A stretch of DNA of 59,417 bases, filler included, from Basidiobolus ranarum (lineage: Eukaryota), in assembly GCA_040143965.1 (NCBI GenBank). It is 8 parts of 8 records of this genome, joined end to end, with 100 filler letters (N's around TTAATTAATTAA, not from the genome) between each part and the next. Parts side by side here need not be neighbours in the genome. Positions count along the whole stretch, not along the records: positions 22,358 to 29,697 come from JASJQH010008010.1; 7 more parts are not named here. One strand, written 5' to 3'. The notes under the pieces are model-generated. The model was not told the origin of the DNA and searched no databases. It saw nothing but the letters and a program-made list of their open reading frames with translations. Position numbers and translations under genes: made by a program. Of this stretch, positions 1,212 through 53,069 are shown in pieces; within the stretch, counting starts at the first letter, position 1; each line of letters begins with the position of its first letter.

Positions 1212-2963
1212 GGTGGGCGTGCAATCAACTGCAAAGGAAGATATTGATAACGAAAGAGGTGTTGCTTTCAAGAAGAAACAGAAGACCTATTTTATATCAA
1301 CTGTAAATTACCGAGAATTGTTTTGAGATTGGAAGAGTATGAATGCGCTTTGATTGGATCAAATAAGAATGCAATCAATGATATTGAGGCTGTGAGTACC
1401 AATAAGACCTGATTGGGGGTGAGGTGATGGAGGGGGAGGGAATTTTAAACATGGGCAAAATGCATAGGATATATATTACTGCTCGGGATCAAATAGGTTA
1501 ATTTGAAAAGCGGGCATTTTCTGGTGATCTGGTTGACCCGAATTTTAGAGAGTGCCATGTTTTGTTTGATGGATAGGATTTACGATCCAGCTGTTATTAC
1601 TGAGCTTTGATACAATAGCACCATTGACAGGAGTGATCATTCAGCATCGCTAAAAGCACAGTGATATTCCAATAAGTAAGCCAGTGTGTTACAAAGAACT
1701 GACATGTACATGGTGTACATTAGTGGTAAAATCAGAGAGCTGGTCATCTGAGCAATTTGAGTTGGTGGGATTTCCCCGTGGTCTTCGATACTTTTAAGTA
1801 AGCATGCATTTCGAGAGCTTTACGAATTGGCCATCTGCTGAGCGCTAAATGGAGTATGAGTGATGAACTGCTCACTAGCATGCGCAGCCCGTAGGATCTC
1901 TGGACTCTCCAGCACAGCGTTCTGGACATTGGCTGTACACCAATAGCACACTTTCTTGAGCACTAGGTTAAGTAGTGATCAAGATGGTGATTTTGGTTAC
2001 TGGCCATCAAAGATTGCGTAAACATGGCAGGATCCTTAGACATTATTGAAATTGTAATAGAATTAGGAAAGCTCAAGTTAGATAAGTGATTCATCGTTGA
2101 TATCTAGACCCTGTACCTAGTCTGATTCACAGAACTGATTGAGCTCTTAAGGAACACAAAATCGAAAAAAAATATTTTGGGTAACTGCAACGGTAGCCTT
2201 GTTTCATTGTTCGAGTCTTGATTTTCAAATCAGCATATTCTAATCATTGCTGGACTGTCTGAAGGGTGCATGCCCGTTGACAATCCCGGCCACTACACTC
2301 TACTAGAAGTTGAAGTCCATGCACATTACGAAGCCTTACTTAGTATTAACCAGTTATGCACTCTATGTCATAGAACAACTGGCAAGAAGTCACTAGGGAT
2401 ACATTACTGTCCATGCTTATCATCGCTATAGCTCACTTTGTAAATGTCCATATGCTAAAAACATACGCGCGCCAATCATAGCCCTTTGTATGCACATTAT
2501 GTTGTGTTTCTCTAGTATTCTTAGCAGCTGTGCATCCCTAAAGTATTCTAGAAAACATAATCTACGTTTGACTACTCTACACAAACAGAATCAGCCAGTA
2601 CTGCTAAGTTGACTGCTCAGAGTGCTGATAAACCTTTAAACAAGATGCATCTCGTCAATGACTAAATGAACAGAAGATATTTATCTATCCAACAGAATTG
2701 TGGAATTGTTCTTATTTGAAATAAAGAGGAGCTTGCGGTAACACAGTAAACGATAAAGATGTGGTCAGTAATTAAATAGGGATATGGTATTCAGCCTTGT
2801 CAAACTCTAATCTTTTCTACGAGAAATACAGAAGACACTGAGTCGGTGCGGAATTGGTTCTGAAAATTACCTATCTGACACAAGCTATGGCAAGGGGCGG
2901 TATATGTTATGTCGTAGTCTATAGAGAACCTAGAGGTGTTGAGTTGTAATGTGAGCCAGCGAG

Positions 2964-4408
2964 TTAAATGATCAATGAAGTCATGTCCTTACCCTCTTTT
3001 TCGTTGATAAACACTCTTCTTTGAATGGGTATCGATGTTGGTAACGTCGATTCTAACTTCGGTTGTTTGATTTTCGAATATGTGTAAACCAAGCCGGAGA
3101 AGAATCCTTGGTAATTTGCATACATTAGTAAAACGACAACCAAAGAGTATGAGTATCCAAAACAATCAAAGTACCAAGTAGAATGGCAATAATCCCTCCT
3201 TTAGTGACCGGATCTTTAAAGTAAGCCATTGCGACAATTGCCATAGGTAGTTTGTTCAAAGCACCCACCATACTACATAGAGATTAGTATTGGTTCACGA
3301 TACGTGCTAAACCTCATTATCGTTACCTGTAGGTAGTCGAGTTGCTCATTCGAATGCACCAGGCACTGCAGTAACTGATCATAAACGAACTGCACCCACT
3401 GATTAAGATGGCAAAGACGAAGGATTTTAGCTCCTTGGAATGCTCATCATCCCGACTATATGATTTGATAGACAAGCATCAGTATTTCCCAGGAACAAAG
3501 CACCAACATTAAGTACATAAGTCACTTACTAGTAAGTAACGAGTCCGCCCCAGTTCTCAGATATCAAACTCATGAACACAAAGATCGGAACGATCATAAG
3601 ATTGTTGTAGTAAACCGTATCAAAATCTTTAAAATTAACTAGCTTGATAATCTTCCGCAAATATAACACGTATAAGGCGGAGGAGAGGCAATTAACAAAC
3701 ATCCAAAAATATCCCTCGAGGTTAAATTCAATATCGTTCCAGCCTCCAACTAACGAGCTTAAAATCTAGATACATTTTGGTTAACTAATTGCAAGCGTAA
3801 TGTATCTAGAATGCTGATTACCATCAAAATGAACGACATTAACATCCAGTTTGTTACGGGAATGCGGAACATTATTTTTTCTCCGTATGCGACTAGAATT
3901 ATGGTAAGGTTCTTGAAGATGGTGAACAGTGGAACTCGTAGAAATTGAAGGCTAGAGAGGAAAAGGTTATTAGAATGACAATAAAGATCACAAATCATAC
4001 TACGAAAGTCGAAGTGCCTTTTTCCACCAGTATACAACATGATTGACATAAGTATAGAAACGGGTAACCCTATTTTCAAGAAATATTGGTTATTTTCAAA
4101 GTGTGATAGAAGATTCAAGACGACTCGCTGCTATGTCGAGTGATAATAAGTAACTCCTAGAAGCATGAAGGTTTCTACTTACAGGTTCTCATGTCTTCCG
4201 AATTCAACTTTCGGTGCTCGATCATCCCAAACTTGGCAAAGCTCTTTACCAAAGTTATACAACACATCGACTGTATCGCTAATATAAGAAAAACCGGATG
4301 TTGTGAGAATTCAGATAAAACCAACTTGTTCACCAAGGTCATAAACACCGAGGCAAAGCAGTAGGCAAATATGGGGCCCAAAGAACGTAAACTCGGTAAT
4401 TGGATCAT
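2964..4408 (-). CDS. VRG4: Golgi GDP-mannose transporter (nucleotide-sugar transporter), multi-exon
   Basis: Exons encode [77 protein letters not shown] and [12 protein letters not shown]. Stop at 2964-2966; short GT-AG introns. Confidence 0.9.
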
Positions 4409-4861
4409 TCAAAAATCTGAATGTTGGTGGCAGTGTTAGAGTAAAGAACGTATCCAAAATTCTAATAATCACAGTTGTATATCAAACCCCACCTGAATAA
4501 GAATTTGGTGACTCAAAATATCCTTTACTCTTTTTTAACACTATTATTTTATAGGAATACAGCACATTCTTATTTCAAGGGATCTATTGGGATAAACAAT
4601 TATCATCTAATACGCCAAGTTTCATCTATTTCGGGGATCATAAATGAATGTCAGCCTAATATAACTACACAAGTATGATCTTTTTCAAGATCGGTTGTTC
4701 CTTTAATAGGTTTCTGATAAAATTGTATTTATTTACAGCGAATCTGTGGTTCTATTTAATTATAGGATCTATGGGTTCTGGGATGATTGATTTTGGGTAA
4801 TATCTGGGAGTAAATATCATCATTCTGTTAAAGTAGTTTATCGGTCAATACAATGAAAATA

Positions 4862-7361: not shown

Positions 7362-7461
7362 NNNNNNNNNNNNNNNNNNNNNNNNNNNNNNNNNNNNNNN
7401 NNNNNTTAATTAATTAANNNNNNNNNNNNNNNNNNNNNNNNNNNNNNNNNNNNNNNNNNNN
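7362..7461. other. artificial contig-joining spacer
   Basis: 44 N + TTAATTAATTAA (stops in all six frames) + 44 N. Identical spacers at 14814-14913, 22258-22357, 29698-29797, 37130-37229, 44561-44660 and 51992-52091. Confidence 0.98.
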
Positions 7462-14813: not shown

Positions 14814-14913
14814 NNNNNNNNNNNNNNNNNNNNNNNNNNNNNNNNNNNNNNNNNNNNTTAATTAATTAANNNNNNNNNNNNNNNNNNNNNNNNNNNNNNN
14901 NNNNNNNNNNNNN

Positions 14914-15737: not shown

Positions 15738-17679
15738 GAATCAACTTAAATGGATTTCTTGGATCATATTTTCAGACAGCATATAAACAGCCCTCTTTTT
15801 GCACCTTTCTCTTTAGAAAAGGAACTCTTAGCAAGATTTACCAGTCTGCTAAAAAACTCTCCCTGTCTTCAAGTCACCAATTTTCCAAGAAATTACTATA
15901 GTAAACAGGCAGTTAAACTTCATTCTCCACCAGACTTTGACAATCAGCATATATTGTTACCATCTTATGCTACATTGGCTTATTTATTCAATACTTGTTT
16001 ATCTACTTGTCAAACAAATATTACACCCAGTGGTGTTTATGATCCCCCTAACCCAAAGAATGGCCAAAACAATGAGCCCAGGCTGTGATGTTAATATTCT
16101 TAGCTTTTATTTCTCCCTATATAAATATGGTATCACTGTATGGTGATATCCCTCTGTCTCAGTATCACAATTTGTAAACCTCATGTGCAAGGTAAGCGTA
16201 ATTCAATCCTGTCTTCCTGACCTCTCTAAGAAGGTTGGTAAGCCTGCTATACCACTTTTACTTGTACTTCTTCGCAAAGAAGTGTTCAATTCCAGAATGT
16301 TTGCTTTTATCTGTTGAAATTGGCAGAATAACCATCTTATTCTATGTTTACCAACTAAAACAAACTTGATCACCTCTATAGGGCCATATCAAGCTATAAA
16401 AAGGATATTGGATTTTGAGATGCAGCTACTTCTTCTCACTCTGAGAGCCTCCGTGGTGAAATGTTCCTCCGCAATGGATCCCAATGAATACAGATCGCAG
16501 TGTTGGCCTGGTTTCAAAAACTCAAATATCGAAAACACGGATAAGTAAACTGGACTTGTATATTCAGCTCTCAATCACTTATACCCTGATCAACGATCGG
16601 TGTGCGTCTGCACTTTGTGAGCAAGTGAATACGAGCAATATCTGTATCCCTGCAGTTCACAGTTAACTAGCGATGATACTGGTCTATTCTTCAATGTTGG
16701 AAATCATAAATCTGGATAACAGGAGAGTTCGGTTGAAGTAATAATAGGAGCCAGGTGAAAGAGTTGTGTAGGTGTACCACATAGTGGCATACTTCCCAGA
16801 ATTCAGTTCTACGATATATCTCATTGATTGACAGCTATCTTATACCAACTTTTCGCGGTTCAACTTGGATGCCATCAAGTCAAATTTCTTTAGAGGGTGC
16901 AATTTTAACTCTGCAGACATTGCTAGTAGCTAATTTTTAAACGAGTACACTTCAAATTGGCACCTTCCTTGCTTCATGAAACACACATTGCTACATTAAC
17001 ACAGCCGAAATTGAGCATACTCACTTGGTATTGAGTGGCATGCAATTATTATTAGATTACACAATTTACAAATGTAGCTGTTGCTATGTCATGGCATTGT
17101 TTACGGTAAAGCTTTTCTACCCATCAATCAAAGGTGTCATGCCCGCGAAAGTTCTCTTTCAAACAGACCGGTTTTCGCCTCTTTAGTTTTTGCTCTCTCA
17201 TTATCGTGTTCGTCGAGTGGGACAAACTGTCCGTAAGATATCGGTATACATCAATATTGTTATTAGATACTGGATTTTGAAGTCAATTTTCCATTGAATT
17301 CGGATGAACATTTGCAATGCATCATGATTGGGGCATTCATATTAAAGCTACTGTATTCTGCATCCTCAGAATAACTCTGGTTTTAAGTTTCATTCCTGTT
17401 CACTTGGATCTTGCATGGATCAATTGCAATTGGTGTAACACTAAACAGCGAATCAATACCCACCGAACCCCATGACTTATGTATGCATGATACCTTTCCA
17501 GAAGATTTCCTATTTGGATCTGGCTTCACGCATACTTAACCCCTTCATCTCTACCAAAATACTGGTGCCATTTTTACTGTGTAAATTTAGTAGCTATCTT
17601 ACACTATCATCTTTGAGCTTTGCATCATATTGTGTCCCTACTGTTAATAAGTACAAAGCCGCAATATATTTCTAAAGTC

Positions 17680-19118
17680 ATGTCAGATATCAATTTGGTA
17701 CATAATCCTGACCACAGTGAAAATGCTCTCTCCGAGAAAACTCAAATAGCCGTTCTGGGTACTGGGTGGTTTGGCAGAGCTATGAGTAAACGACTACTTG
17801 ACTCAGGTTACCAAGTTTTACTAGGAACACGAAATCCCACTCGAGCAAAGGGAAATTTCAAACTTCCTGTTGAGCCTGTCAATTATGTTGAGGCCATTCA
17901 GAAAACGGATATCGTCATCCTGTGTTTACCTCAGCAAGCGCATTCCTCCTTTATTAAAGACTATGGGTCTTTTGTCAAAGGTAAAATAGTCATTGACGTA
18001 ACTAATCCGCTTCATTATCATTCCGGGAACGATTTAAACATGTCTATTGCCGAAAACTTGCAAGCCGCCTTACCTGAGGCTAGGGTAGTAAAAGCTTTTA
18101 ACACACTATCTGCTTACTCCCTGGAGGTACACACACATGGATTAACACGTGAAGTATATATATGCACCAATGATCCAGGAGTTCTTCGTAAGGTATCAGA
18201 AATGGTCCGCAAGATAGGGTAACTATACTCATGATTTCATTACATTGTATTCGATATGTTCACTCCGGAAGGCTAATGTTATTTGTCATCAAAAGCTATA
18301 CCCCTGTCGATTCTGGCACTCTAGCCATGTCCCGATCAGTAGAAGCAATGCCATTATCATTTTTTGAGAACTGGAGACTACCTTTAGCTGTTTGCGCTGG
18401 ACTTCACATTTTTTTCTTTCTGTATCTGCTCATAACTCGATATGTTATAGTCGCTACACCAAATTACAACAATTTGCCATTATTTGTAAGCTGACCAAAT
18501 CTATGTAATTGTTGAATCTTAATACTAATATGGCGTAATTAGGGGTTCAATAGTACTGTGGCCGATACAGCATTGGGACTCTTTTCCCTCGCCAATTTGG
18601 CTGGTTGCGTAGCCAACATTTTTCAACTTGTCCGCGGAAGAGCAAATCAACCTTTTCCGCCTTGGTTAGCGAACTGGCTAAACTCGCGGAAGCAGCTGGG
18701 ATTGCTCGGGTTTTTGTACATGGGTGTGCATATTTTCATGTCCACATCGTATGCACATTTGTATAGGCACATAGTAGGTGGATACATTAACGGGCCAGCT
18801 CAGGCTGGACTACTCCTGGCTCATATTAGCGCACTTATATACTCCATTCTGTGGGTTGTATCTCTTCCGTCGGTTGGCAATTTGTTAAGTTGGAGAGAGT
18901 GGAGGTTTATTCAATCAACATTAGGTTGGACTGCTCTGGCCTTGGGATTCATTCACACAGTATTGATGGTATATCCTTTCTGGATGATGGTTGTGAACAT
19001 TCCAAACATCGCGATGTTAGGGTCTATCCTTCCAGTCCTTGCATTTATCTTAAAGTTTTTCCTACTTTTACCACCTGTGCAATCCAAGATCCAGCTGATT
19101 CAACAAGGAAAAGCTTAA
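17680..19118 (+). CDS. STEAP-family metalloreductase (NADPH oxidoreductase domain + ferric reductase TM domain); introns 18219-18295 and 18486-18542
   Basis: Rossmann GTGWFG, IDVTNP, SIAENLQ..VVKAFNTLSAY, TPVDSGTLAMSRSVEAMPL, RKQLGLLG, WREWRFIQSTLG, and two TM histidines (MGVHIF, GFIHTV); both introns keep the frame. Confidence 0.87.
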
Positions 19119-21185
19119 GATACGTTGGATTCACAACGCCCAATTCTATTAAATCTAAATTTACCATCACATATCTTAATATCTGTACAGCATCAGTGTA
19201 TTTCCCCAGATGTAGTAGCAATAGCTTAAGCTTGTCGGTTCATTGATAAATTGCATATTTGATCAAGGGAAGATAGTACAGCTGGAAATACTAGTTTGAT
19301 GGGATTACAGTCTAGTCCCTTTGAATAAACAGAGACTGATCAGACAAGTAGGATCAGCATCTCACTTTACTTGCATACGTCTGAAAATATACCTGGTCTG
19401 ATTGATTCATTCTGCGTTTGACCTCATTGACTTTATTGGCAAGCTAATACAAGTGACATGGAGCGAAGTAATGTTTCTCCAATTCTTCATATAGATATTC
19501 ATAAGATTCCTTCTCAATATAGCAATATTCTAGAAATCCGACGTTAGAACATGGAGTTGCATTTACCATGAACTTTGTACCGTTGTGAACTGTTTTAGGG
19601 AAGCCTCTACAGTAGCTTGCTTTTGGTCAATATAGCTTGAGTGACATGACGAGTAAGTGGTGTAAATGAGGAAGTTACCATGGTGCATCTTCATGTATTC
19701 GTAGATACGTCGTCAGCCTTGTATCACCACGATTATCGAACGTTTAATGAAAAAGCATGTACAATAGGTTTGTGAGTACAATGTGCTTTCTCGACGACTG
19801 AGCACTCTGCCTGGCCAATTCTTCTTTCAATGATCAACAACTGCACCAGCGATTTGATTGATTTGCTAAACCGCTGCCTTGCTTAACCCAATGCAATGAC
19901 ATATAGATAGGACTTACTAAAACCGGGTCTGCTAATATTATTAGTGCTACCTGTACGGTACAACGGATCGAAATATACTCAATACTTGATCCGAATATGG
20001 AAATGATCTAGAAGAAAAGACTCTTTTGGGCTCCTTAAGGGATAACGAATAGAGATTCACTTCGTGGTGAGGGAAAAGTAAAGAGTGGGTGGATATGAGA
20101 TGTGAGCATCAGCATCATCGGTATCAGTGTGTGACTCGTCGTGTTATGCGTGTTATGGCTGGCAAAGAAGACATTCTAGACGTGACGTTGATCACTAGCT
20201 GTGGAATACCGTTTCTGTAATACGATTGACTTCAGTGATCAACTTCGATAGAGTAGAGTTATTGTAATGCTACGTGGGTATCGCCATCACATCATTCCAA
20301 TCCATTTTCCGTAAACAGCTTTGGCATAGGGGCATTTCATACAATTTCTAGATAACTACCGAATTAGTGAATCAAGTATATTCTCGAATAGGTGTAAGTA
20401 GCTTCCAGCGGATTCCCTAAAGCAGCTATATTGCTGTTGATTGGTGAGGATTGATTAGTGGTGAGAAATCGTGTTACCTGGTTTGGAAAGAGCTAAGGGC
20501 TATATGATATGCATCTCAATGATTTAACGATATTCACATACATCAGTTCTGTTGCTGTATCACCTCAAGAGCAGCTTGTACCATTAGTAATCAAACTGGC
20601 TTGATTCCATCAAATCTTTCAACTATCTAAAGCTTCTACTAGTGCAGGTTTGTGCAGATTCGAAGCGTTCATTGATTGGTTTCCAGATGATTCATATCAC
20701 TACCATTCATAACTGGAACAGCAGTGAACACAATACGATTGATTAAATTAAATACGTTCGTGTTCCAATTGTTCTAGAAGGTTTCTCTATTCACAAACAT
20801 TACCATCCAACGCAGATGGCCAGTATAGTATTGATATGTACTCTAGTTTAAATCCACGGTTTCAAAAAAGGAAACTCGATGGAAAACCATTCTGGCTGAG
20901 AGAAGGACGGGAATTTCAAAGTTTATTGGGGAGTGTAGGGGGTAGATTGGGAATATGAGGGTAACACTCGAAAGGTGGGGTGGACGGAGTATGATGATTC
21001 TGCTGATAGGTAGGACAAGCGTAATGGATAAAAGCAACCCATCTACCGCTAATCCTAGATACCTCACTGCCCCTTCACTCCATTCTTCCTTTGAGTTTCG
21101 TGTGCTTTATTCATACTAAAGTTACTTTGATAAGGTGGTGCGATTTCCTCAATTTTCCCGTCAATTTTAAGTCACAAATATCACC

Positions 21186-22257
21186 ATGGTTGAATTATCC
21201 CAGTGTGTTGTGGAGCAAGTTAATAATGCTGAGAAATACGAAGTCGATGGGGTGACGACCATAGAAAACAAAGTCAGAGTGGCAGTGATTGGAACTGGAT
21301 GGTTCGGTCGAGCAATTGCGAAGCGTTTGTTATCTAATGGCTTTGATGTCTATCTAGCCTCTCGTAATCCTGGAAAAGTTGGATTTGAGTTGCCCTGTGA
21401 ACCCACCTCCTATACACAGGCCCTTACAGCTTGTCACATCATTTTCCTGTGTATACCTTGGGCGGCGCATTTAACTTTTGCTTCCGAATTTGAGGAATTA
21501 TTGAATATCAAGGTAGTTGTGGATATTGCCAACCCTGGTAACATTCACAGTGGTACCAATTTGGGGATATCGATTGCGGAGAGACTGCAAAGATCGCTTC
21601 CAGGCGCGCAAATCGTCAAAGGCTTTAATACTATCTCTGCTTACTCCATGAGTAATGATATAAAAGGCTTGAATCAAGAAGTCTACCTTTGTTCCGATTA
21701 TCCCGAGGCATTGAAAGAAGTCAGCACCTTGACAAGAACTCTAGGGTAAGTTATTTTATATTAGCAAAAGCTCTCAATATCTTGGACTTACGTAGGATGC
21801 TTTTATTATAGTTACAACCCAGTAGATTCCGGTACTCTTTCTCAGGCGCGAAATATTGAAGCCATTCCATTGGCATTGTTTGAAGAATGGCGCAAACCGA
21901 CCACTTTCACACTCATACTATTATTCTTCTTTATTTTCTACAACATTCTATCTGAGCAACTAATCAAGAATGTGAGCTGGGCGTTGTTCCCATTGAACGT
22001 AAGCTTTATCTTGTATTCCTGCATTTCAACTGTATTTATACTAATACTGCTCTATTGATAGAACATGAACTCTATTTTCGCTAGTACGTCAATGAATTTA
22101 TTCGCTGTGGCTAATTTCGCGGGTTGTGTGGCGAACGTCATTCAACTTTGGACTGGTACGGCGCAACAACAATTCCCACAATGGCTTGCTAGTTGGTTGA
22201 ATCATCGTTAACAACTTGGGCTTTATGGATTCATGTTTTTGTCCATGCATCTATTCA
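21186..22257 (+). pseudogene. second STEAP-family paralog with in-frame TAA at 22209-22211; 3'-truncated; introns 21746-21811 and 21999-22061
   Basis: Same motifs and intron positions as 17680-19118; reads WLNHR*QLGLYGF where the paralog reads WLNSRKQLGLLGF. Confidence 0.75.
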
Positions 22258-22357
22258 NNNNNNNNNNNNNNNNNNNNNNNNNNNNNNNNNNNNNNNNNNN
22301 NTTAATTAATTAANNNNNNNNNNNNNNNNNNNNNNNNNNNNNNNNNNNNNNNNNNNN

Positions 22358-23345
22358 CTTCGTCGTGTCAAGCGTCATCGCTCAGGATGCCCAGAAATCT
22401 TTGGTCGATAATACTGTTGCGAACCCTAGTCTAGCAACACTCACCACCATTGTCGGTAACCCTGCTTTTAGTGCCGTCAAGACACTTTTGTCTGGGAGCG
22501 GTCCATATACTGTGTTTGCCCCTAATGATGCCGCTTTCGCTGCTGCTCAAGTTGATACTTCAAACGTTACACTTGTACAGGAAGTACTGATGTACCACGT
22601 TATCTCAGGGAAGATCATGTCAGCAGACCTACAACCACTTCAATTCCCATCCACTCTTCTGAACAGCTCGGATCTAGTAAACCTTCCCGACGGAAAACCC
22701 CAAGTGCTTGGCGTCAGCAAGGGGAGCAAAGGGGTGGCGGTTTCCTTTGGATTGAAAAGCGCCAATGTTGTCCAAGCGGACCTTGCATCCTCCAACGGGG
22801 TGATCCACATCATTGATCAAGTGCTTATGCCTCCTACAAAGCCTAGCCAAACAGCCACTAGTGCCAACCTGACAGCACTCGTAGATATCCTGAATAAAGC
22901 AAACCTCACAGAGACAGTGGATGGACTGAAGGGAGCCACTATCTTTGCACCGACTAATGATGCTCTAACCAAGGCGAATGCCGGGACGCTAAATACCACA
23001 ATGTTGATGGATGTGCTCAAATACCACGTGATCAGTCCCAGTGTCAAATACTCTACTGACCTCAAAGATGGTGATAAGCTTACCACACTCCAAGGGACTA
23101 CACTGAGTGTCCAGGTCAGTGGAGGGAATGTGATGATCAACGGAATGAAGGTCTCCACTCCTAATGTGCTAACAAACAATGGAGTGGTCCATGTTCTGGA
23201 TGGAGTGTTGATCCCTGGACAGCAGTCTAACTCGACCCTTAGCGCGAATGGAGCTAAGCCCGCTGGTAACTCCGGAGTCGTAATCAGCTCCATTACTCCA
23301 GGTGGAGTTATGTTAGGACTCTTAGCTCTTGTTCTTGCACAATAA
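22358..23345 (+). CDS. two-domain fasciclin (FAS1) cell-surface protein, likely GPI-anchored, 5'-truncated
   Basis: Two FAS1 repeats (YTVFAPNDAAF..YHVI..NGVIHIIDQVL; TIFAPTNDA..YHVI..NGVVHVLDGVL) and a hydrophobic C-terminus. Confidence 0.92.
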
Positions 23346-23705
23346 AAGTGGATATTCCGATATGCTTTAGTCACTTAGCCCAACACCATCCAACTAGTGG
23401 ATAACTTACGCAAATTTTCAATCGGATATTTTACCATCTATATCAATAAAATCTTCAATATACTGATTATACGCAAATTGAATCAAGTGTAAATGCACTA
23501 TGTGAGTCAATCAATGATCATATGTATATTGTATGCACTTCTTAATAAATTGATCCATCTTCTTTTTACAAATCACTCTGCTAAATTTCAACACACATGT
23601 CATCAATAGACTAATTTGTCTTTACTATAACTTACATGCATTCTTTTCTCTCTCCTTTGATTTTTTCCTCTTTATCTCATATACATAATTATATATAACA
23701 CTACT

Positions 23706-25771
23706 ATGTCAGAAGAAGAAACATAAGAGGTAAATAGTGAACATACATTGACAGCCTTACTATTCTGTTCTTGTATATTTTTTGCTTTTACAGGAAGCTG
23801 AAAAGAGTTCTTGTTTTTCATCGAGTGTTAAGTGAATAATAATGGTCAAAATGTCAGTTTCTACCATTGAATAGAAGGAACAATACAGGCCTGTACTGAA
23901 AGAGTTGGCCAAAGACAATGAATTTGGCTTGAAAGAATATGTGGCAAAAGATTTTTTCATCAAGTCTTTTTGTCTCATGTTGACAAATGGGTTGGGAATG
24001 GAAGTATGACTGGCAAATCCCAGCTTTCAGCAAAAGTGTTAGGTAATAGAGAAAATAAACACTTATAGAGAAGAATATTGTCAACTTGCTTCTTATGCAC
24101 CTTTTAAATTGGTGAATGCTCAACAAATAGCCATCTATAAAAGCACCAAGATTCATACCACCTACATTAATAATGTAGCTCTGGACTTTGGAAATCATCT
24201 CAGAGTGTTTTTAAACAAGGCTTTATGAAAAAAAGAAAAGATCAAGAAGTTGACTCAAGATATGGAAAACAACAGCTGCTCAGAAGAGAAAATAAAGACT
24301 TCAGTCAAAGCCAATATACTTGATGTTTGTGAGCAGAAATATCTTCAAGAACTGTACCAACTGCACCAGCAAATATCTTGAACAACATGACTGTCCATAG
24401 AATTCAAAACTTTTTGGATGTTTACCCAGACAATTACAAGTTTGCAAAGAGCTCTGTTTACTACAATGTCAAAGCAAACCCGAAGCAACATTTACATGCA
24501 TTTTATATCCTTGCAAAAACATGTGAAGATAACAATATGAAATAATTTGATGTTTCCCCCTGCAAAAAAGCTTTGTCCCTTCTTATATGACAATAGATAC
24601 TAAGATCTTGAACTATGATATATTGAGAAACAAGAATTTCACTGGAAACAAGGTTGATATTTGGAGTAGTGTTGTCAATCTAAACTGTGAAGCTCTTAAA
24701 AGTCAAAATGCCAAGACAATGAAGTTTGTAGGGGCCATTGACAGAGTTGGTATGTCTATGCTTAAACAGAACTTTAGCACTGCCAGAAGAGGCGCTTTAA
24801 GTGGTCGCCAGAAAATGAAGGCTGTTGACGACGGTGTTCCTTATATTGAAAAGTTATCAAAAGATGAAATCCTTGAGACTACAGAGAATTGTGCTTATTG
24901 ATCCTGGTTGTGGTGATCTTTTATACCGTATGCATGAAACAATTGAAACGAAAGGAAGACACTTCTGGAAGCTTCGACAAATCTTAAAACCTGCTTGTAT
25001 TCAAGAACTTGAAAATAATCTTAGTAAAACACCTGCTTCAACAGCGATTGTTTAAACAGCTCTAAAGAGAATTCCAAGAAAGAGTATGAATATCGCCGTA
25101 AAATGGTAGATGAATTGACAGCCACCATCAATTACATGCTGGCATTACCTTTCAGAAAAATCAAGTTATCTAGCAGAATTAATAGACTACAATCTGACCA
25201 AAAATTAGCAAACAGTTTGAAGAGGAAATTCGGAGATGCTGTTTTGGTTTTAGGTGACTGGTCATCTGCGAATGTGAAATTTCATGAGCCAATTAGAGGG
25301 AAAGGAATGCGACGTATGCTGCGAGAAGCAGGGTTCAAAGTTCTGTTGTTGAACGGGTTCCACACTGCAAGTTTTTGCCTCGAATGTGAGCTCTCAGAAT
25401 TGGAAAAATTCAAAACCATTCCAAACCCAAGAGTTTTCAGACGAAACAAGATGCCAACTGTAAAATGACATGGTCTTTGAAGGTGCTGTCCGGGATGATA
25501 CAGAAAGAAAGAAAAGAAAATGAAAGCTAGTATTTTTTCGTCAAATAGGTGCACAAACCAAAATTGTTTGAAGACCATGACAGCCAGTAGCATTAGACGA
25601 CTTTGGAACCGAGACCTTGCTGCAGTACTTAATTTCCGTCATATCTTAACTTTGCTTAGAGAAAAAGCCACCCGTCCTGACCGATTTATGCCCCAAAAGC
25701 AAGGTAAAAGAAAAGGAAAGCCAAGAATCAAACACTCTTCCTCCTCAGTTATCGCTGTAGGATACCAATAG
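23706..25771 (+). pseudogene. Fanzor (eukaryotic TnpB-like RuvC nuclease), degraded; putative introns 23730-23793 and 25483-25548
   Basis: RuvC-I VLIDPG..DLL (Asp 24900-24902); VLGDWS..HEPIRGKGMRRML..GFKVLLLNGFHT then CLEC; HGL.R|CTNQNC; RuvC-III LWNRDLAAVLNF (Asp 25613-25615); N-terminal NAQQIAIY..TYINNV..FGNHLR and PSYMTIDTKIL blocks recognised from fungal Fanzors. Multiple stops and frameshifts. Confidence 0.85.
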
Positions 25772-25926
25772 TACAGGTAAGATTTTAAAAAATATGTTGA
25801 TTGTTTAGAAATTATTATGTCCACAAAAAAAAACTAAAACGTCTAGTCTTACTGCTGACATTCGTCTGAATGCTTGCTCTTCTATGATTGTCTAATTATT
25901 TTTTATAATCGTCTAATTTTAGGTTA
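25690..25926 (+). ncRNA. candidate Fanzor omegaRNA scaffold / transposon right end (copy 1)
   Basis: Overlaps the Fanzor C-terminus and continues about 155 bp past it; conserved with 27604-27868, with similarity ending sharply at TTTTAGGTTA. RNA function is inferred. Confidence 0.5.
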
Positions 25927-26185
25927 CTGTACAGGATGTAAGTTAAGTTTACTCAGAGTAAATTTCGTAAAGCTTTGTTTACTTGAGACAAAGCATCCAA
26001 ATCAATACACTAATGAATCATACGAGTAAAACCAAAGGTCATATGATGCAATAGTTTTTACCCACTTGGCATTTGTCAATGGCGTAAGTACAAATTCCTT
26101 CAATTAGTAATCAGATAATTATATTTAATGAGGTAAAAACCAACATCCCCTCTACCTGCACCACCACAACACAACCTCATACAAT

Positions 26186-26908
26186 ATGACCTTCAAAAGT
26201 ACTGGCCTTTGGATCCTTTCAATATTAACCGCTTTGATAGCTGTTGTTGTAGTAGACCGTCAGTCAGGGTCAACACTTCGACTTGGTAACCGTATGTTCC
26301 ATAGTATGTGGACATACTTGGGACCCGTGATGGACGAGTGCTTAGCTCCTACAAAAGCCCCTCTGTTGAGTCTCGCCCAAGGCAAAGTTGTAGAAATTGG
26401 ACCTGGCCATGGCTCCAATTTCAAATACTTTGCCAAAAATAAAGTGACCAGTCTTATAGCAGTTGAACCTAACACTTTAATGCACCCAAAGCTTGTAGAA
26501 CAGGCAAAGGAGTATGGTCTTGATCAATTCGAGATAGTCGGAGCAATGTGGGAGAATTCTAACCTTGAAGAAGGTAGCTGTGATGCTATCATTTCCAACC
26601 TGGTACTCTGCTCAGTAGACAATTTGTATCATACTTTGGATCTAGTCCACAAATACTTAAAACCAGGTGGGAAGTTTATCTTTATCGAGCATGTTGGTCA
26701 TCCAAATGGAACTATGTGGCGAACAATGCAAAATTTAGTCACCCCATTATGGAAATATGTTGGTGACAACTGCCACTTAAATCGTGATGTAGCTCCCGCT
26801 CTAGCAGCTATGGATGGTTGGAAAGATGTGGAGCTGAAGGTTGGAGATATGTGTGGCAGTTTTCCTCTTGTCAACCCAAAGATATACGGCTATGCTACCA
26901 AAGTATGA
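26186..26908 (+). CDS. SAM-dependent methyltransferase, METTL7/TMT1-like, with N-terminal hydrophobic anchor, intronless
   Basis: VVEIGPGHGSNF, AVEPN..M, LVLCSV, LKPGGKFIFIEHV, W..VGDNCHLNRD. Confidence 0.88.
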   Translation: MTFKSTGLWILSILTALIAVVVVDRQSGSTLRLGNRMFHSMWTYLGPVMDECLAPTKAPLLSLAQGKVVEIGPGHGSNFKYFAKNKVTSLIAVEPNTLMHPKLVEQAKEYGLDQFEIVGAMWENSNLEEGSCDAIISNLVLCSVDNLYHTLDLVHKYLKPGGKFIFIEHVGHPNGTMWRTMQNLVTPLWKYVGDNCHLNRDVAPALAAMDGWKDVELKVGDMCGSFPLVNPKIYGYATKV

Positions 26909-27603
26909 ACGATCCTTCACTTTGGCATTTAAAAGCTGATTTCGAAATGCATTGGAGATACTTTTATTGTAATCTTCTCACATCAGTAATACCCTAGCAC
27001 TTTACATATATTCGATTGTTCAAAGTACTTGCTGTACTAAATAAATACCAAGAATTACCCACAATATCAGATGTCGTGAATCTACAATAGCTGCCTATTA
27101 CCCTCTAGTGCCATATTAATATATATATGCTAAATCTGCATGTGCATGTATTTCCGTACAGACCTCTTTAGCCAATGAGACGCAACAGTATGATTCAGAT
27201 GGATTTTGGGCCCAAACTGGTGTCCATTTATATGGCTTAAAATGTAGAAACTATAGGATCACTAAAACGCTTGGAAATAGACTGCATATTTTCAATATAT
27301 TTTTGAGCAGTCATCCTAGAATAGAATGAAGCCTGCTCATTCGTAGGGGTAGGGAGTCACATTTATATGCGATTAAGTCATAATTCTCCTGCTATAAATT
27401 GGTTAAATAGAGTATAGTGATGAGAGACATGAAGAATCGTCAACGTAATGGAGTATAAAGTTGGAGCTAATAGCGAGCCTTGCAAAAGTTCCAAAAGAGG
27501 AAGGCCTAGATTGGTACTTTACATGGAATTGCCAAGATGTGAGGCTTAGTTCATGGCAAAATCGCATTCTGATCTGGGCAATGCTTGAACCTTCACCATC
27601 AAA

Positions 27604-27868
27604 GCCACAAAAGCAAGACGCCCCAGGTAAAAGAAAAGGCAAGCAAAAGGAAAGCCAAGAATCAAATACTCTTCCTCCTCAGTTATCGCTGTAGGAGTAA
27701 AGTAAGATTTTAAAAAATATGTTGATCGTTTAGAAATCCCTATGTCCACAAAAAAAAACTAAAACGTCTAGTTTTACTGTTAGCATCCATCTCAATGCTT
27801 TTCTATGATTGTCTAATTTTGATTTCAGCTTGTCTAATTATTTTTGGCAATCGTTTAGTTTTAGGTTA
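27604..27868 (+). mobile_element. nuclease-less copy of the Fanzor element 3' end (candidate omegaRNA 'ghost' locus)
   Basis: Direct repeat of 25690-25926 (e.g. CTCTTCCTCCTCAGTTATCGCTGTAGGA, GTAAGATTTTAAAAAATATGTTGAT, TATGTCCACAAAAAAAAACTAAAACGTCTAG); same terminus TTTTAGGTTA, different flanks. Confidence 0.8.
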
Positions 27869-28582
27869 AAACCCTATACACCAAATAGTGTGCTCACCGT
27901 GATAAGTTTCATATCAGGCTATCAATCAACAGCACCGAGATGTTGTGCTGGCACATCTCTGGCACCTTAGATTACGTAAAATTGTCATCGTAGTGTACCA
28001 AGTATCACTGAAACTGGGTTGATTGCTAAAAACTGTACTAAAACTATAATCTACTGAGATAGAATACAGTCAACTTTGTAGGCATGCTACTACCAAGAGA
28101 AGACTAACTCCCTTCAGCCTTTATACTCTGGAAGATAAATGTTAATTTTCTAAACCTTGAACATGTTTTTACACCAATATTTTAGTCTTTGATTCATTTA
28201 CTAGTAGTTTTTACTGATATTTTGCTCTCGAAGATGTAAGTAAGGACAATGAATGAGGAGGGTATATTAATGAACATGGAACTAAAGTAAAATCAAGTAA
28301 ATATTTGATTACGACCGTTACGGAAAACAGACATACCGATGAAGAGTGTAGCTTATTGAGTTCTATTTTCAGTAAAATCAACGATGAATTAATGAATCGA
28401 TATTAAGAATATCTCTCAGCGTGGTAAGCTACACTTCGTATGGGCCATGAAAGATAATGTGCAATGTTCCTCTCACCTGCCTCAGGATATGAAGGATTCG
28501 TAAACAAAATGATTGTTTTGTGAATCGAAAAATATGCCGACACTAATGAATACATAATGGAGAGTTTTGTGTGATTCCTTTT

Positions 28583-29176
28583 TCATTCAGATGACATCCA
28601 CATTCCCCTATTGATATTTACAGAGTTCGTTTCTTGGTTAGAACCTTTCGGCACTATTGGCAACAATGGCAATGGCCGAAGCGCCATCGATGGTGAGTAC
28701 CCGCCGTCATCAGTTTGAATGGTAGAATATTCAGAAGAATCTCTTTGGCTAGATTCCTTGGTACTGGTTTCAGTGACCGGTATAGAGCTTTCCGAACTCC
28801 AAGATTGAATGGAGTTGGTTTTGTGAGGTAGAATCAGCTTAGACGTTGAAGGTAAAGGAGTGTTTCGGGTATCAGGTGTCAGATTAGGAATAGGCCTTTG
28901 TTGAACTAGAAAATCAATAAAATCATCACGCACTCCTAGCAATTGATTTGGGCTATCAGCATACTCCAGTTGAAAATCATCGAGTACTTCCTCAATAAGG
29001 CTTCGTGGATATTCACTGGTGAAGCGTTCTTTTGATAATATGCTGAGCATATCAATATCCAGGTCATTCATCCGTAGTTTTTTAAGCTCATTGAGTTGCG
29101 GATATCGAAGCTGTAGAGTGGTATGAAAGTGCTGATATAAGTGTCGCTTCTTGGAAATATAAAGGTCAGGTAGCAT
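28583..29176 (-). CDS. hypothetical protein (197 aa, Ser/Pro-rich C-terminal half)
   Basis: ATG-initiated long ORF; no family recognised. Confidence 0.45.
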   Translation of the reverse strand: MLPDLYISKKRHLYQHFHTTLQLRYPQLNELKKLRMNDLDIDMLSILSKERFTSEYPRSLIEEVLDDFQLEYADSPNQLLGVRDDFIDFLVQQRPIPNLTPDTRNTPLPSTSKLILPHKTNSIQSWSSESSIPVTETSTKESSQRDSSEYSTIQTDDGGYSPSMALRPLPLLPIVPKGSNQETNSVNINRGMWMSSE

Positions 29177-29879
29177 GCTTAAGGTGTATGTATGAATGGG
29201 TAGGCGAGGTATTGTAATGGAAGAGAGTGGTGGCTATACAGGCTGTATTGATTCACGTTAGTGTGTTAATGGTAAAGCTTAACTCTACTTAAAAAACACT
29301 AGAGCTAGGCGTGCCGAAGATTGGAGTAAAAAGAAGAACGAAACTCTTCATTCACCGCGCAACTAAAAAACGATATTCAGAAAGTGATATTCAAGAATGG
29401 GTTCAAATGTCAAATGATAAAGACCAGGGGTTGAGTTCAGGGACAAGGGAAATAGTCCAAGATTGGCGCTTAAAAAGTTAATCAAAGGAATTGACCAGTT
29501 GGGAAAGTGGGATTTCGAGACCGGGGAAGTTTAAATTGTTGAATGAGTAGAGGTGGGGCTTTGAATGACGAAGGAATCTTTTTTTACTATACCTTAGAAC
29601 GAATGATCGCTTTTTCATATTTCAATATGGATCGAATGTGGACTATTGAGGAGGCCAATCAACAATCCAACTCTAGATGAATTGATTAATGAATTATNNN
29701 NNNNNNNNNNNNNNNNNNNNNNNNNNNNNNNNNNNNNNNNNTTAATTAATTAANNNNNNNNNNNNNNNNNNNNNNNNNNNNNNNNNNNNNNNNNNNNATC
29801 AATTTGATTGAAATTGGGGCCAACTTTCTGGAGCACAAAACCAACAGATGACCATCACAATATCAAAGGTTTGCACTCT

Positions 29880-36800: not shown

Positions 36801-37229
36801 TTCACACAGTCACTGTATCAGCCTGAAATCTGTCAAAGTGAGTTGATGCCATGGATATTGTTGGGAGTACTGGTAAAATATGATGGTATTTTGACATTGT
36901 CAAGCATTTTTCCAATTGATTCAGACTTTGATCATATCTTGAATGGCTCATTCATATGAAATTTTCAACATATACCTGAGTAAGAATTATTGAAATGTTG
37001 CTGAATAGTAAGTGCCTAGTGCCCAATGGGAATCTCTAGCTCCAGCTGATCCCCTTTAGAAATATATCTTAGGCTTATGGCTAATTCCAAGTTTGATGTT
37101 AGACTGACTATTTGGTGAATGGATATCAGNNNNNNNNNNNNNNNNNNNNNNNNNNNNNNNNNNNNNNNNNNNNTTAATTAATTAANNNNNNNNNNNNNNN
37201 NNNNNNNNNNNNNNNNNNNNNNNNNNNNN

Positions 37230-37730: not shown

Positions 37731-39797
37731 CTAAGAGGTCTCAAAAGAGTATCTTTGAATATTATTGAAAACCTCCTTTGACATCTTCAACATTGTAGGC
37801 TCACATGAACTGTGACAAGAGTTTTCCTCATCTTCTGGTAAGACAATTTCAACTTTTAACGGGTTGCTGGTTGCAAAGAAAATTCCATAGATGTCAGTGT
37901 TCTAGGGTATCCCCTTTATGAATTTGTTAAGGATAATTTCAATAAATAGCTTATTGGTGCGATATATATTTCCATTTATTATTTTATAAACAAAGTCAGT
38001 TGCTTAACAAGCATATGCCAATTCACTCAAAGTAGAACGGAGGTGTTAGTTTGATTTCCCACCAATTACTAAATCCCATGAATCCTCTATATTCGATGAT
38101 AATATGCATGTAGGTAAACCTAATAAACGGGCGTCAGATGATCGTGGACTTCGAAGGATTAATTGCTAAATAAGAATTTGTGAATTAAAATAAATGTACA
38201 ACATAGCTGGGTCTAGATGGTATCAGCAAATCATTACAGTGGTACCATCAGGTAAACAGGCCACTATAGTTATGAGTCGTTTTTGATACCCCCCGTTTGG
38301 TTAATCTCTAATGTAAAGTCGGGATAAACTTTAGGGTGGAGATAACCACCATTTACGGGATAGAGACATCCCGAAGTAGCCCCTATCACTGTACCGCCAT
38401 GACCTCTCTTGTCAATGATGCCCTAGCTGTGTGATACAAGATATCTTTCCATTCGAGGTTTTTCCTCAGCATTGCCGATACTTTCCAATGAAAGGAACTG
38501 TTGTTACGCAAACTTAGATGAATCTGAACTGAGTCTGCCTTACAAAGAACTTCGCATTAAAAATTGACGATGCCACATAAGATGTCACACCACTGTGTGG
38601 TGGAGGCCAATAGGAAGTTCAAAATATCAAGGAACAGACTAGCCTTGAGAGACTTCATTGAGCATTTTAGCAATGTTGCTGGAGAAATAATGTTCATTGA
38701 TACAAGAGCTTGACAATTCCTATCAGCAAGCACCCCTTTGCAAGTGAATCAATATATCTGGTTGGAATCATCTGCTTGCATGCACACTGATCGATGTTAC
38801 GTACTACTGCGTGTAATTGTTTAATCGTGATATGGTCGTGAAAAGATCTGTGACCAAACCTATCTGCATGTATAAGCGCTACACGAAGTCTAGGAAGTTG
38901 TAGTCACTGGCAGAATTTGTGCATTATCTAGACTGTGGGTGTCCTTGTAAAATGCCATACTAGATTGAGTTAACATGGGGTTTGCTAGCAGTTACTCATC
39001 ACGCAATAGAATTCGATTAATCGGAATGACCAATGGGTGGTGTGCATATAGAGCCTTCTTCAGTAGCCCCCGAGTCTGAAATCTTGGATATAGCCTATAG
39101 AGAAATTCTGGTTCTTTGCGAAAAAAAAATTGATGGTAGTTTGATGCAGCACGGAGGTTGTTTATCTTAATGAGGCGTAGTTCAATCAAATCAGATGGGT
39201 GCGATTATTAATGGATTGATCAAATCCCTTCCCAAATTGTACCATAATTCGGAGATTTCCAAACTTTAAATGCTAATGTATGACTTGACCAATTAGGGGC
39301 AATCTTGAACTATTCATTAAAATGTTGGAATATTCATATAGAAGTGTATTGGATTTCTCTCCAATTACAATTTCCGGTACTCGAACGCATTCATGATAAC
39401 GAAAGCAAAATAAAACTTGTATATGGGCTGATATTAATGCTACGTATAGATGGTATTGTTAGTAATGAACCAATTCAACGATTAGCCACGACTAGTTGGT
39501 CTTTTAGGCTCGACACACTCTAATAGAAAATACTTGAATGATATAGCTGTAGGAGTTTGTGTGACGAGCTTATTAATAATGGCGCTAACAATGAAGGATG
39601 GGAAACCTGATGAATTTAGAAAGTAACCGAGTTAGCTAACAAGAAGATCTCGAATGAAGGCAGTAAGGAAATGAAAGGAAGGTAAAAGTACAACATTGAA
39701 TTATAAATGTGGGCCAGACTTTAAGTATAAATACACACTGTTGAGATGCATAACTTATCAGATTATTACTGGAATCATACATACGACACTTCGAACT

Positions 39798-40397
39798 ATG
39801 CAATCTCTTTCCAAGCTATTTTTCATTACTCTTCTTAGCCTTGCCTTCTTGCAAGCTACAGTAGTGGCTAGAAGAGTAAAGATGACCTACTACTGGGTTG
39901 CAAACGAGAATGACCACTCAGGATCCAAAAATGTTGACATTAAGACCTGTGCAGGAAAGTCCATCGCCAAAGTTTCCTGGTCTTTCGCTGAAGCTGCTCG
40001 TATGGAGGGTACTGCACGTTTGAACAACGGTAAGGTAGTCAACCTTTCATGCAGTTGTGGTAGCGGATTCAACTGTTTCATGGCTCTTGATGAGAAGAGA
40101 TATCCCTTCGGCCTGGGTTCTCAGAGCAATGCTCTCAAGCCTTTCATCAGCATCTCTGCCAACGATATTCCATTTGGAAGCACAGTTATCGTAAAGGAGC
40201 TTCAAGGACTCAAGATGCCCAATGGTATCACCCATAACGGATGTGTACGAGTTGATGATAAGGGATGGAGCTTTGGAAACAACCACATTGATTTATTGGT
40301 TGGTGACAAGAAATATTACGAACAAATCAGTCGTCAATACGGCAGCAGGCTCAGCAACGTCGACATTACTCAAACTTCCTGCCAGCTTCAAGGATAA
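39798..40397 (+). CDS. secreted 3D-domain (MltA-like) protein, copy 2
   Basis: Signal peptide MQSLSKLFFITLLSLAFLQATVVA; three-Asp pattern ANDIP / VDDKG / IDLLVG; intronless; TATAAATA about 70 bp upstream. Confidence 0.78.
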   Translation: MQSLSKLFFITLLSLAFLQATVVARRVKMTYYWVANENDHSGSKNVDIKTCAGKSIAKVSWSFAEAARMEGTARLNNGKVVNLSCSCGSGFNCFMALDEKRYPFGLGSQSNALKPFISISANDIPFGSTVIVKELQGLKMPNGITHNGCVRVDDKGWSFGNNHIDLLVGDKKYYEQISRQYGSRLSNVDITQTSCQLQG

Positions 40398-44560: not shown

Positions 44561-44660
44561 NNNNNNNNNNNNNNNNNNNNNNNNNNNNNNNNNNNNNNNN
44601 NNNNTTAATTAATTAANNNNNNNNNNNNNNNNNNNNNNNNNNNNNNNNNNNNNNNNNNNN

Positions 44661-51991: not shown

Positions 51992-53069
51992 NNNNNNNNN
52001 NNNNNNNNNNNNNNNNNNNNNNNNNNNNNNNNNNNTTAATTAATTAANNNNNNNNNNNNNNNNNNNNNNNNNNNNNNNNNNNNNNNNNNNNTTAAGTCTA
52101 GAGCTCTCAATGGATATCTTTGAGTATGGATGTATTGAGAATTAATCAAGATTTTGACTACTTTGCCTAACTTTGATTGAGGCCCACAAAATGATTTTCC
52201 TCACCGTTTTTCAGTTGAATATCTATGTTTTTATTTAGTATCATTGCACGATAGACCAGTTACCATTATACTATTTCGTCGTTTCACGCCATTATGTGGC
52301 AACTCAATTTGATTTATATTTATGAACTATGTAGGAGTTTGGCTTATGATTGCTGCATTGAAGATCCAAATGATTTTACATAAAGTATTGAATATCCTTA
52401 ATTGAAGAGCCTAGATTTCTGATGTGGATTTGGTTTAAGATGGCTGGAGGTATCGGGATAGTTTTTTAATTTGCGCAGGAGAGTATTACAGAGGCTTGGA
52501 TTTCACCAATGCCTGAACACAAGCACTGATTGACATCCATAGTTGCTGAATATGTCTTTGGCCATCTCACTTTGCTGGAGCTAGTGTTGGGAATCATTGG
52601 CCAAGAGGCTTCTTCAGTAATTTCTTGGATTTTGCATGATATTGACGTTGCCTAATATTATCAGAGAACACACTGCTATCCTCCACAATGTATAATCATG
52701 CAGCACGAACGGTTCCAAGATCTCTAGTAAGACATACTCAATGAAGGGAATTAGTGGATTGCAGTCAAATCTGAATTTCTCGCAATTCCTTATAACCTGC
52801 CAGAGCATAATACGAAATCTACCTCAGCTCACCTGATTGGCCAAGCGTCAGCCTTTTCATGTACTACCATATTCCTTAATTTAATCCATTCCATTTGTTA
52901 GCCTTTCATTACGCTCTTCATCCTAATTTCACTTTCACTCACACCAAGCAATATAAGCTCACATCTACCCCTTTGTTTATGTTAACCCCGCTTGTTTTCA
53001 ATATTCTCATAGCATACGTCAATTGAAGAAACCTTTCTTGCGTTCTCCTTTGTCAAATATAAATATTTC

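Follow-up and report, generated by a model that had tools for sequence, protein, structure and literature searches.

Fanzor1 proteins are eukaryotic TnpB-like RuvC endonucleases that are guided by an omegaRNA. As genome editors they are compact and of eukaryotic origin, and the search for further natural variants continues. Here, we describe a stretch of 59,417 nucleotides from the genome of Basidiobolus ranarum (assembly GCA_040143965.1), in the following called the window, in which positions 23836-25771 of the plus strand represent, with high confidence, the relic of a non-autonomous DNA transposon of the terminal inverted repeat (TIR) type with a Fanzor1 gene of the lineage that includes PpFz1. 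This copy is dead and could make no nuclease.

PpFz1 of Parasitella parasitica (PDB 9cf0-9cf3) is the better of the two matches with a solved structure and is described with the target-adjacent motif 5'-ATN and an omegaRNA of 75 nt, which contains a 7-bp SL1 and a 4-bp SL2 (PMC11423790). The window copy is collinear with it over the half comprising RuvC-II, TNB and RuvC-III and has the family motifs LPFRK, G[DN]WS, HEP, DE-x-x-TSS-C, CHGLLRC-N-x-x-C and WNRD in common. However, PpFz1 is an active nuclease of a Mucorales host, whereas the copy in Basidiobolus is broken and lacks the catalytic Glu as well as most of the domain named Fanzor RuvC Insertion (FRI), which is located between YY-x-NE and LPFRK.

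The second solved match is SpuFz1 (PDB 8gkh), a Fanzor1 from the element SPu-1 of Spizellomyces punctatus that is homologous to pieces of the window copy. SPu-1 is described as a short, TIR-bounded, non-autonomous element of which 'ghost' copies, partial ones and ones without an open reading frame (ORF), are common (PMC10432273, PMC3627910), and its omegaRNA spans the right inverted repeat and takes the guide from the flank (PMC10432273). It differs from the family treated here by its inverted repeats of 30-33 bp and by the fact that no intron is mentioned for it, in contrast to long TIRs (135 bp in the relative L001, see below), subterminal repeats and a conserved intron. The Mucorales families ROr, MCi and PBl are likewise fungal Fanzor1 genes on non-autonomous DNA transposons (PMC3627910). 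For the families of Bao and Jurka (2013), the motif D..[TS][TS]xx[C4]..RD was given; some Mucor families were reported with fuzzy or truncated 5' ends, SPu-1 with TA flanks and MuDR-type Mucorales families with 9-bp duplications (PMC3627910).

Prokaryotic TnpB of the IS200/605 group, such as ISDra2, shares the RuvC fold, the D-E-D triad, the zinc-finger TNB domain and a guide RNA at the right end (PMC10530073). In contrast to TnpB, the window family has a rearranged Glu, a Gly at the canonical site, a spliceosomal-type intron, TIR-type ends and a eukaryotic host, and the Pfam TNB model remains below threshold even on intact Fanzor1 relatives.

The architecture of such an element can be seen in the relative L001, a Fanzor1 element that is nearly intact and lies on a contig of a public metagenome. 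It is bounded by TIRs of 135 bp (1721-1855 and 4446-4580, 89% complementary) and contains an ORF at 2220-4361 with one intron, all catalytic motifs and one possible frameshift. L001 is 54% identical to the window copy over a 146-aa piece and has the same intron site and phase as well as homologous blocks in the right-end TIR. It differs in that both TIRs, the start codon and all catalytic residues are kept and the FRI insertion is absent. By this model, an intact element would measure about 2.9 kb, with 135-bp TIRs, an ORF of ~690 codons and a single short intron in the TNB region. In the case of the target-site duplication, no 9-bp repeat was found at L001; its TA flanks are compatible with a duplication but ambiguous, since the TIR tip is the palindrome TATA.

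Two side observations concern this contig. The frame change of L001 lies at 2417-2432 in a run of eight T (..GACTTTTTTTTAAAG..) and is either genuine or possibly caused by the assembly. At 904-1234, on the upstream side of the element, a perfect inverted repeat of 43 nt (975-1017 and 1192-1234) is accompanied by a related direct copy (904-940), which may be a small hairpin element or one resembling a miniature inverted-repeat transposable element.

Identity and catalytic site of the Fanzor1 pseudogene

An earlier note on the window had stitched together a TnpB/Fanzor architecture from motifs and had named the comparison with Fanzor/TnpB profiles and structures as a check beforehand. With phmmer, the 146-aa piece encoded at 25028-25465 matched PpFz1 (9cf0, E 4.2e-31) and SpuFz1 (8gkh, E 1.8e-10) and no other chain in the PDB; a C-terminal piece of 90 aa matched the same two proteins (E 3.1e-11 and 0.0079, respectively). 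A word-indexed protein search, used at longer lengths, returned one protein, and phmmer was instead run exhaustively against 1.84 billion representatives. This search delivered 964 matches at E<=1e-3, among them 291 at E<=1e-10, with a top identity of 62%. Named members of the matched clusters belong to the Mucorales (Helicostylum, Spinellus, Rhizopus, Cokeromyces, Parasitella) and to Basidiobolus ranarum. A hidden Markov model (HMM) was built from 36 full-length relatives. The eight pieces that it matches in the window lie in collinear order at 23875-25768 and together cover positions 54-653 of the profile; it found no further match at E<0.4 in the rest of the 59 kb. Two full-length relatives, the library protein P0008 and L001, match PpFz1 from end to end (E 5.6e-197 and 3.2e-135). 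This similarity far exceeds what chance would produce. The Fanzor/TnpB identity proposed by the note thus stands, and a failure of the profile and structure comparison did not occur.

The extent of the pseudogene was defined by tblastn and frameshift-aware alignments to the library proteins P0002, P0008, P0013 and P0153 and by the collinear HMM pieces. All motifs listed in the earlier note (IDPG, GDWS, HEP, GKGMRR, NGF, CLEC, CTNQNC, NRD and KRKGK) were found by direct reading at the coordinates it had given. The following features of the coding region are located on the plus strand:

23836-25771, plus strand: Fanzor1 pseudogene, from the N-terminal 'IIMVKMSV..' to the stop codon TAG at 25769-25771, distributed over all three frames
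24900-24902, plus strand: RuvC-I Asp codon GAT in VLIDPG (ATT GAT CCT GGT encodes IDPG), aligned to LIDPG, LIDPN or YIDPG of relatives
25253-25264, plus strand: GDWS, followed by HEP and GKGMRR, with Gly at the canonical TnpB RuvC-II Glu site
25355-25357, plus strand: GGG (Gly) in NGF at the rearranged catalytic Glu site, placed by PpFz1 and SpuFz1 alignments; relatives read L-I-D-E-F/Y-x-T-S-S
25376-25387, plus strand: CLEC, first Cys pair of the zinc finger in the TNB domain
25466-25468 and 25478-25480, plus strand: two in-frame TGA stops, where PpFz1 has C-H-G-L-L (third zinc-finger Cys and Leu)
25613-25615, plus strand: RuvC-III Asp codon GAC in WNRDLAAVLNF, from direct reading and the PpFz1 alignment
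25706-25720, plus strand: basic tail KRKGK, a putative nuclear localization signal (NLS); similar basic tails occur among relatives

At the canonical RuvC-II site of TnpB, Fanzors are known to carry Gly or Pro, and they use an alternative Glu about 45 residues away (Jiang et al., PMC10530073), which follows the fifth strand and precedes the TNB domain (Xu et al., PMC11423790). Both positions can be followed in the alignment of 151 relatives. At the Gly of GDWS, 144 of the 151 also have Gly, a substitution typical for Fanzors. At the rearranged site Glu is present in 135/151, and the window copy has Gly (GGG). For Fanzors, whose Glu is the rearranged one and not that of the canonical TnpB position, the earlier note was thus correct in stating that the Glu ahead of the zinc finger has been lost. 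The neighbourhood is altered too: the Asp preceding this site has become Asn, and the T-S motif reads T-A, its Ser (kept in 140/151 relatives) being replaced by Ala. The Gly at the catalytic site together with T-A is a loss within a pseudogene and does not indicate a different family.

The C4 zinc finger is also broken. Here, the Cys pair of CLEC (Cys in 140/151 and 131/151 relatives) is kept, the third Cys codon is TGA (25466-25468), and the fourth Cys is kept behind the intron. With respect to the C-terminus, at least three consecutive K/R are found in 21 of the 45 relatives having a tail of 25 aa or more, and KRKGK is possibly an NLS.

The ancestor of the window copy was probably FRI-bearing. 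This is suggested by the residues before LPFRK ('CLNSS..KKEYEYRRKMVDEL..'), since about 40 aa align to the C-terminal end of the long, FRI-type insertion in P0002, P0008 and the annotated protein P0038, and the insertion of P0008 matches the FRI domain of PpFz1 in one continuous alignment.

The right end, its second copy and the omegaRNA question

The end of the element and its surroundings comprise the following features:

25690-25931, plus strand: 3' module of the window copy, with ORF tail, 3' untranslated region and right TIR (about 25820-25931), shared with 27604-27878
27604-27878, plus strand: orphan right end, a second, 5'-truncated copy with an ORF-tail remnant and a right TIR ending in ..TTAAAACCCTATA
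22359-23345, plus strand: fasciclin-domain host gene, an intact ORF behind an N run (Pfam Fasciclin, E 1.5e-51)
26186-26908, plus strand: class I SAM methyltransferase, an intact ORF between the two right ends (Pfam Methyltransf_11, E 5.7e-13)

The right TIR of the first copy carries GTCTAA-like subterminal repeats and a tip that reads ..TTTTAGGTTA, followed by a 5-bp deletion and CTGTA. The likely tip is at 25931, so that the element end at 25926 in the earlier note falls 5 bases short. The module is found again 1.9 kb downstream in the same orientation, with 82-90% identity and indels. This second copy is a true Fanzor right end, because the shared block starts inside the basic tail of the ORF; upstream of it (26909-27603) no Fanzor coding remnant was detected by HMM or tblastn. 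The right ends of both copies can be aligned with either of the 135-bp TIRs in L001, copy 1 being short of 5 bp near the tip. The blocks in common are GTC-ACAAAAA, YGTCTA, GTCTAA-TTATTTT and AATCGT-T-ATTTTAG-TTAAAAC-CTATA, the common string of the right end being AATCGTCT-ATTTTAG-TTAAAAC-CTATA. From these blocks we infer that the 3' end of the window copy is the right TIR of a TIR-type DNA transposon, which would also have been its mode of transposition. The subterminal motif YGTYTARWY is not enriched in the whole window (24 matches against 21 expected) and is clustered locally in the two right ends. A linked transposase was sought among 10 other large ORFs of the window and not found.

The arrangement of the two right ends might be explained as one composite unit of Fanzor, first right end, methyltransferase and second right end, originating from read-through or from one-ended transposition that captured a host gene. 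The direct orientation of both ends around a single intact gene would fit, and fuzzy 5' ends in Mucor Fanzor families as well as one-ended events in other Fanzor1 elements have been described (PMC3627910). However, the ends are merely 82-90% alike with several indels, which fits two old, separate insertions, and the methyltransferase looks resident, being 61% identical to a Basidiobolus meristosporus homologue. We consider the composite unit very unlikely and prefer two separate insertions next to a resident gene.

If SpuFz1 is taken as the model, transcription of an omegaRNA would run across the right inverted repeat, and the guide would come from the flanking DNA. The scaffold of this RNA would then occupy the 55-75 nt directly preceding 25931 and 27878, respectively. 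The right end is conserved in both window copies and in L001: the module of ~240 bp is 82-90% identical between the two copies while the rest is decayed, and its tip is ~80% like that of L001, although the L001 protein is just 54% identical. An 8-9-bp hairpin at 25884-25912, present in both window copies, was considered as omegaRNA stem and rejected, as it is not kept in L001.

A further, improbable idea is that the module is conserved because the right inverted repeat doubles as an omegaRNA gene. The orphan at 27604-27878 would then be a stand-alone guide-RNA gene, a 'half-ghost' that depends in trans on intact Fanzor1 copies of the FRI type at other sites of the genome. If true, this would concern the Basidiobolus lineage, which lies outside the Mucorales, where FRI-type Fanzors are described.

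Intron, decay and counter-evidence

The earlier note had proposed two introns, which fared differently:

25483-25548, plus strand: intron of 66 nt, GT (25483-25484) to AG (25547-25548), phase 2, in the Arg codon (AG|G) of HGLLR|C
23730-23793, plus strand: proposed intron 1, GT at 23730 and AG at 23792-23793 present, comparative support none

The downstream intron is well supported by comparison. Its excision leads to a gap-free alignment to CHGLLRC-N-x-x-C of PpFz1, with CTNQNC starting right behind it from 25549. In L001, a GT-AG intron at 4038-4096 interrupts the same codon in the same phase. Among 77 relatives with the HGLLR motif, 11 gene models stop exactly after HGLLR and seven derail there, one of which retains an in-frame insert; hence, 18 of the 77 models break at this position. 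The comparison supports a spliceosomal-type intron at R|CTNQNC, as the note had claimed, and documents its site and phase as conserved across relatives of about 50% identity. Many database proteins (P0002, P0003, P0011, P0016, P0022, P0023, P0041 and others) end at HGLLR or run into junk, since gene callers read into the conserved intron.

A separate observation was made for P0038, an annotated hypothetical protein of Basidiobolus ranarum with 191 aa. It represents the remains of a Fanzor1 with 64-80% identity to the window copy, in which '..KFGEDAV' is directly joined to 'SSNR' (in the window, the last three intron codons and Arg). As the whole Glu and zinc-finger segment is missing, it is a pseudogene annotated as a gene.

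At the 5' side, neither the intron of the note nor an ATG at 23707 could be confirmed: starting there, the first exon meets TAA at the seventh codon. In the relatives P0152, P0153 and L001, the start lies about 5-7 codons ahead of the point (23836) where the homology sets in; an exon further upstream is therefore not required, and 23730-23793 is probably not part of the gene. At the start site of these three relatives, no ATG is present in the window copy.

The claim of several stops and frameshifts was borne out: we count about 6-7 frameshifts, at least five in-frame stops and three deletions. The reading frame switches among all three plus-strand frames, and the stop-to-stop ORFs are short. 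In the frameshift-aware alignment to P0008 (253/567 identical), six frameshifts lie near 23961, 24051, 24333, 24551, 24881 and 25037, and in-frame stops at 24226, 24543 and 25466. That to P0153 (229/530 identical) yields seven frameshifts and stops at 23872, 24226, 24330, 24548 and 25466. Conserved residues are hit: the Trp of 'G-W-K' by TAG at 23872, the third zinc-finger Cys by TGA at 25466 and a Leu in CHGLLRC by TGA at 25478. Compared with relatives, 22-26 aa are deleted near 23893 and 13-17 aa near 24945, after 'MHET'. The third deletion, at about 25040-25075, amounts to ~155-164 aa relative to P0002, ~120 aa relative to P0008 and ~22 aa relative to P0013, and takes out the conserved F-x-E-Y-L..Y-Y helix.

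We suggest the following course. The element would have inserted between the fasciclin and the methyltransferase gene and then decayed neutrally, with loss of the start codon, the left TIR and the catalytic Glu and with accumulation of frameshifts, stops and the three deletions, of which the third would have removed most of the FRI-type insertion together with the conserved helix.

An otherwise intact gene that was damaged by assembly or sequencing errors is an even weaker explanation than the composite unit. The single frameshift of L001 in a run of eight T could be such an error, but most changes in the window copy are substitutions that create stops, deletions of several codons or missense changes at invariant positions, and not homopolymer slips. 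A general sequence error is also contradicted by the flanking host ORFs (328 and 240 codons), which are unbroken.

There is hardly any room for a living gene in which the frame changes are unrecognised introns and a working Fanzor is made. Fanzor genes are sometimes rich in introns (PMC10530073), and one frame-neutral intron is real. However, four of the frame switches lie where homologous segments directly adjoin or have 1-10 nt in common; this leaves no space for an intron and identifies them as indels. In addition, stops replace the conserved Trp at 23872 and the zinc-finger Cys at 25466, the catalytic Glu is Gly, conserved segments are missing, and L001 carries a single intron.

Several results weigh against the interpretation as a TIR-type Fanzor1 relic of FRI-bearing ancestry with an omegaRNA at its right end. 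A left TIR was not found: a 17-nt tip pattern with up to three mismatches and an nhmmer TIR profile over the 59 kb each matched the two right ends only, and local alignments of 23346-23905 with the reverse-complemented right ends and the left end of L001 scored below the shuffle means. No target-site duplication was found at the window copy, including none of 9 bp (MuDR-type). The right ends fold no better than shuffled sequences (z -0.36 to -1.41), consensus folding gives weak structures (two sequences, -7.55 kcal/mol; three sequences, -0.29 kcal/mol), and Rfam gave no match at E<=1 in 23000-28500. In the case of the FRI domain, an alignment to P0153, which lacks it, places the same ~40 residues differently. 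Pfam recognised no relevant family on the eight frame pieces, including OrfB_Zn_ribbon/Cas12f1-like_TNB (PF07282).

The failure of Pfam extends to the relatives: nothing reached its threshold on any of the five full-length relatives scanned, and PF07282 was found below it on two of these (19.8 and 20.3 bits against 26.3). Pfam alone misses this Fanzor1 family. A non-Fanzor transposase such as a DDE enzyme, with motifs by chance, can be practically dismissed, as the unseen OrfB/TNB domain in the fragments is outweighed by PDB matches to Fanzor1 chains exclusively, by the full-length matches of P0008 and L001 to PpFz1 and by Pfam scans that showed no DDE family. Other transposases were rejected as well, since no transposase profile matched in these scans.

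Relevance of the locus and other observations in the window

The locus holds no new enzyme but a dead, further Fanzor1 of an already characterised kind. The expectation of an 'uncharacterised programmable nuclease' in the earlier note was overstated, given that PpFz1, one of the two PDB matches besides SpuFz1, is solved and biochemically tested. What our analysis contributes is an intron conserved among relatives, a right end with a long TIR and a second, orphan copy of it, a likely FRI-bearing ancestor and the lineage of the host. The locus puts a PpFz1-related lineage, probably FRI-bearing, in a Basidiobolus host; among the papers searched, we found none naming Fanzor together with Basidiobolus, and supplementary lists of surveys may include such cases. 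It documents a conserved intron at which intron-naive callers truncate family proteins after HGLLR, and it ties this Fanzor1 family to long-TIR transposon ends with subterminal repeats. Working copies might be sought in the host genome and by way of the near-intact L001.

Regarding the host context, the methyltransferase at 26186-26908 has its next best match at 44% identity or less after the Basidiobolus meristosporus protein, and it looks like a resident host gene. Elsewhere in the window, two ORFs with F420_oxidored/NADP-binding domains (17617-18219, E 2.9e-17, and 21171-21746, E 4.5e-14) share a strand, are separated by 3 kb and are probably tandem paralogues. The long open frames at 53181-54611 (plus strand, 477 aa), 39675-40394 (plus strand, 240 aa) and 28586-29233 (minus strand, 216 aa) match no Pfam family at E<=1e-3. 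Paired runs of 44 N (616 N in total) recur every ~7.43 kb, at 7362-7461, 14814-14913, 22258-22357, 29698-29797, 37130-37229, 44561-44660 and 51992-52091. They look like masked or withheld sequence and not like biology, and the fasciclin ORF is cut at its 5' end by one of these pairs.

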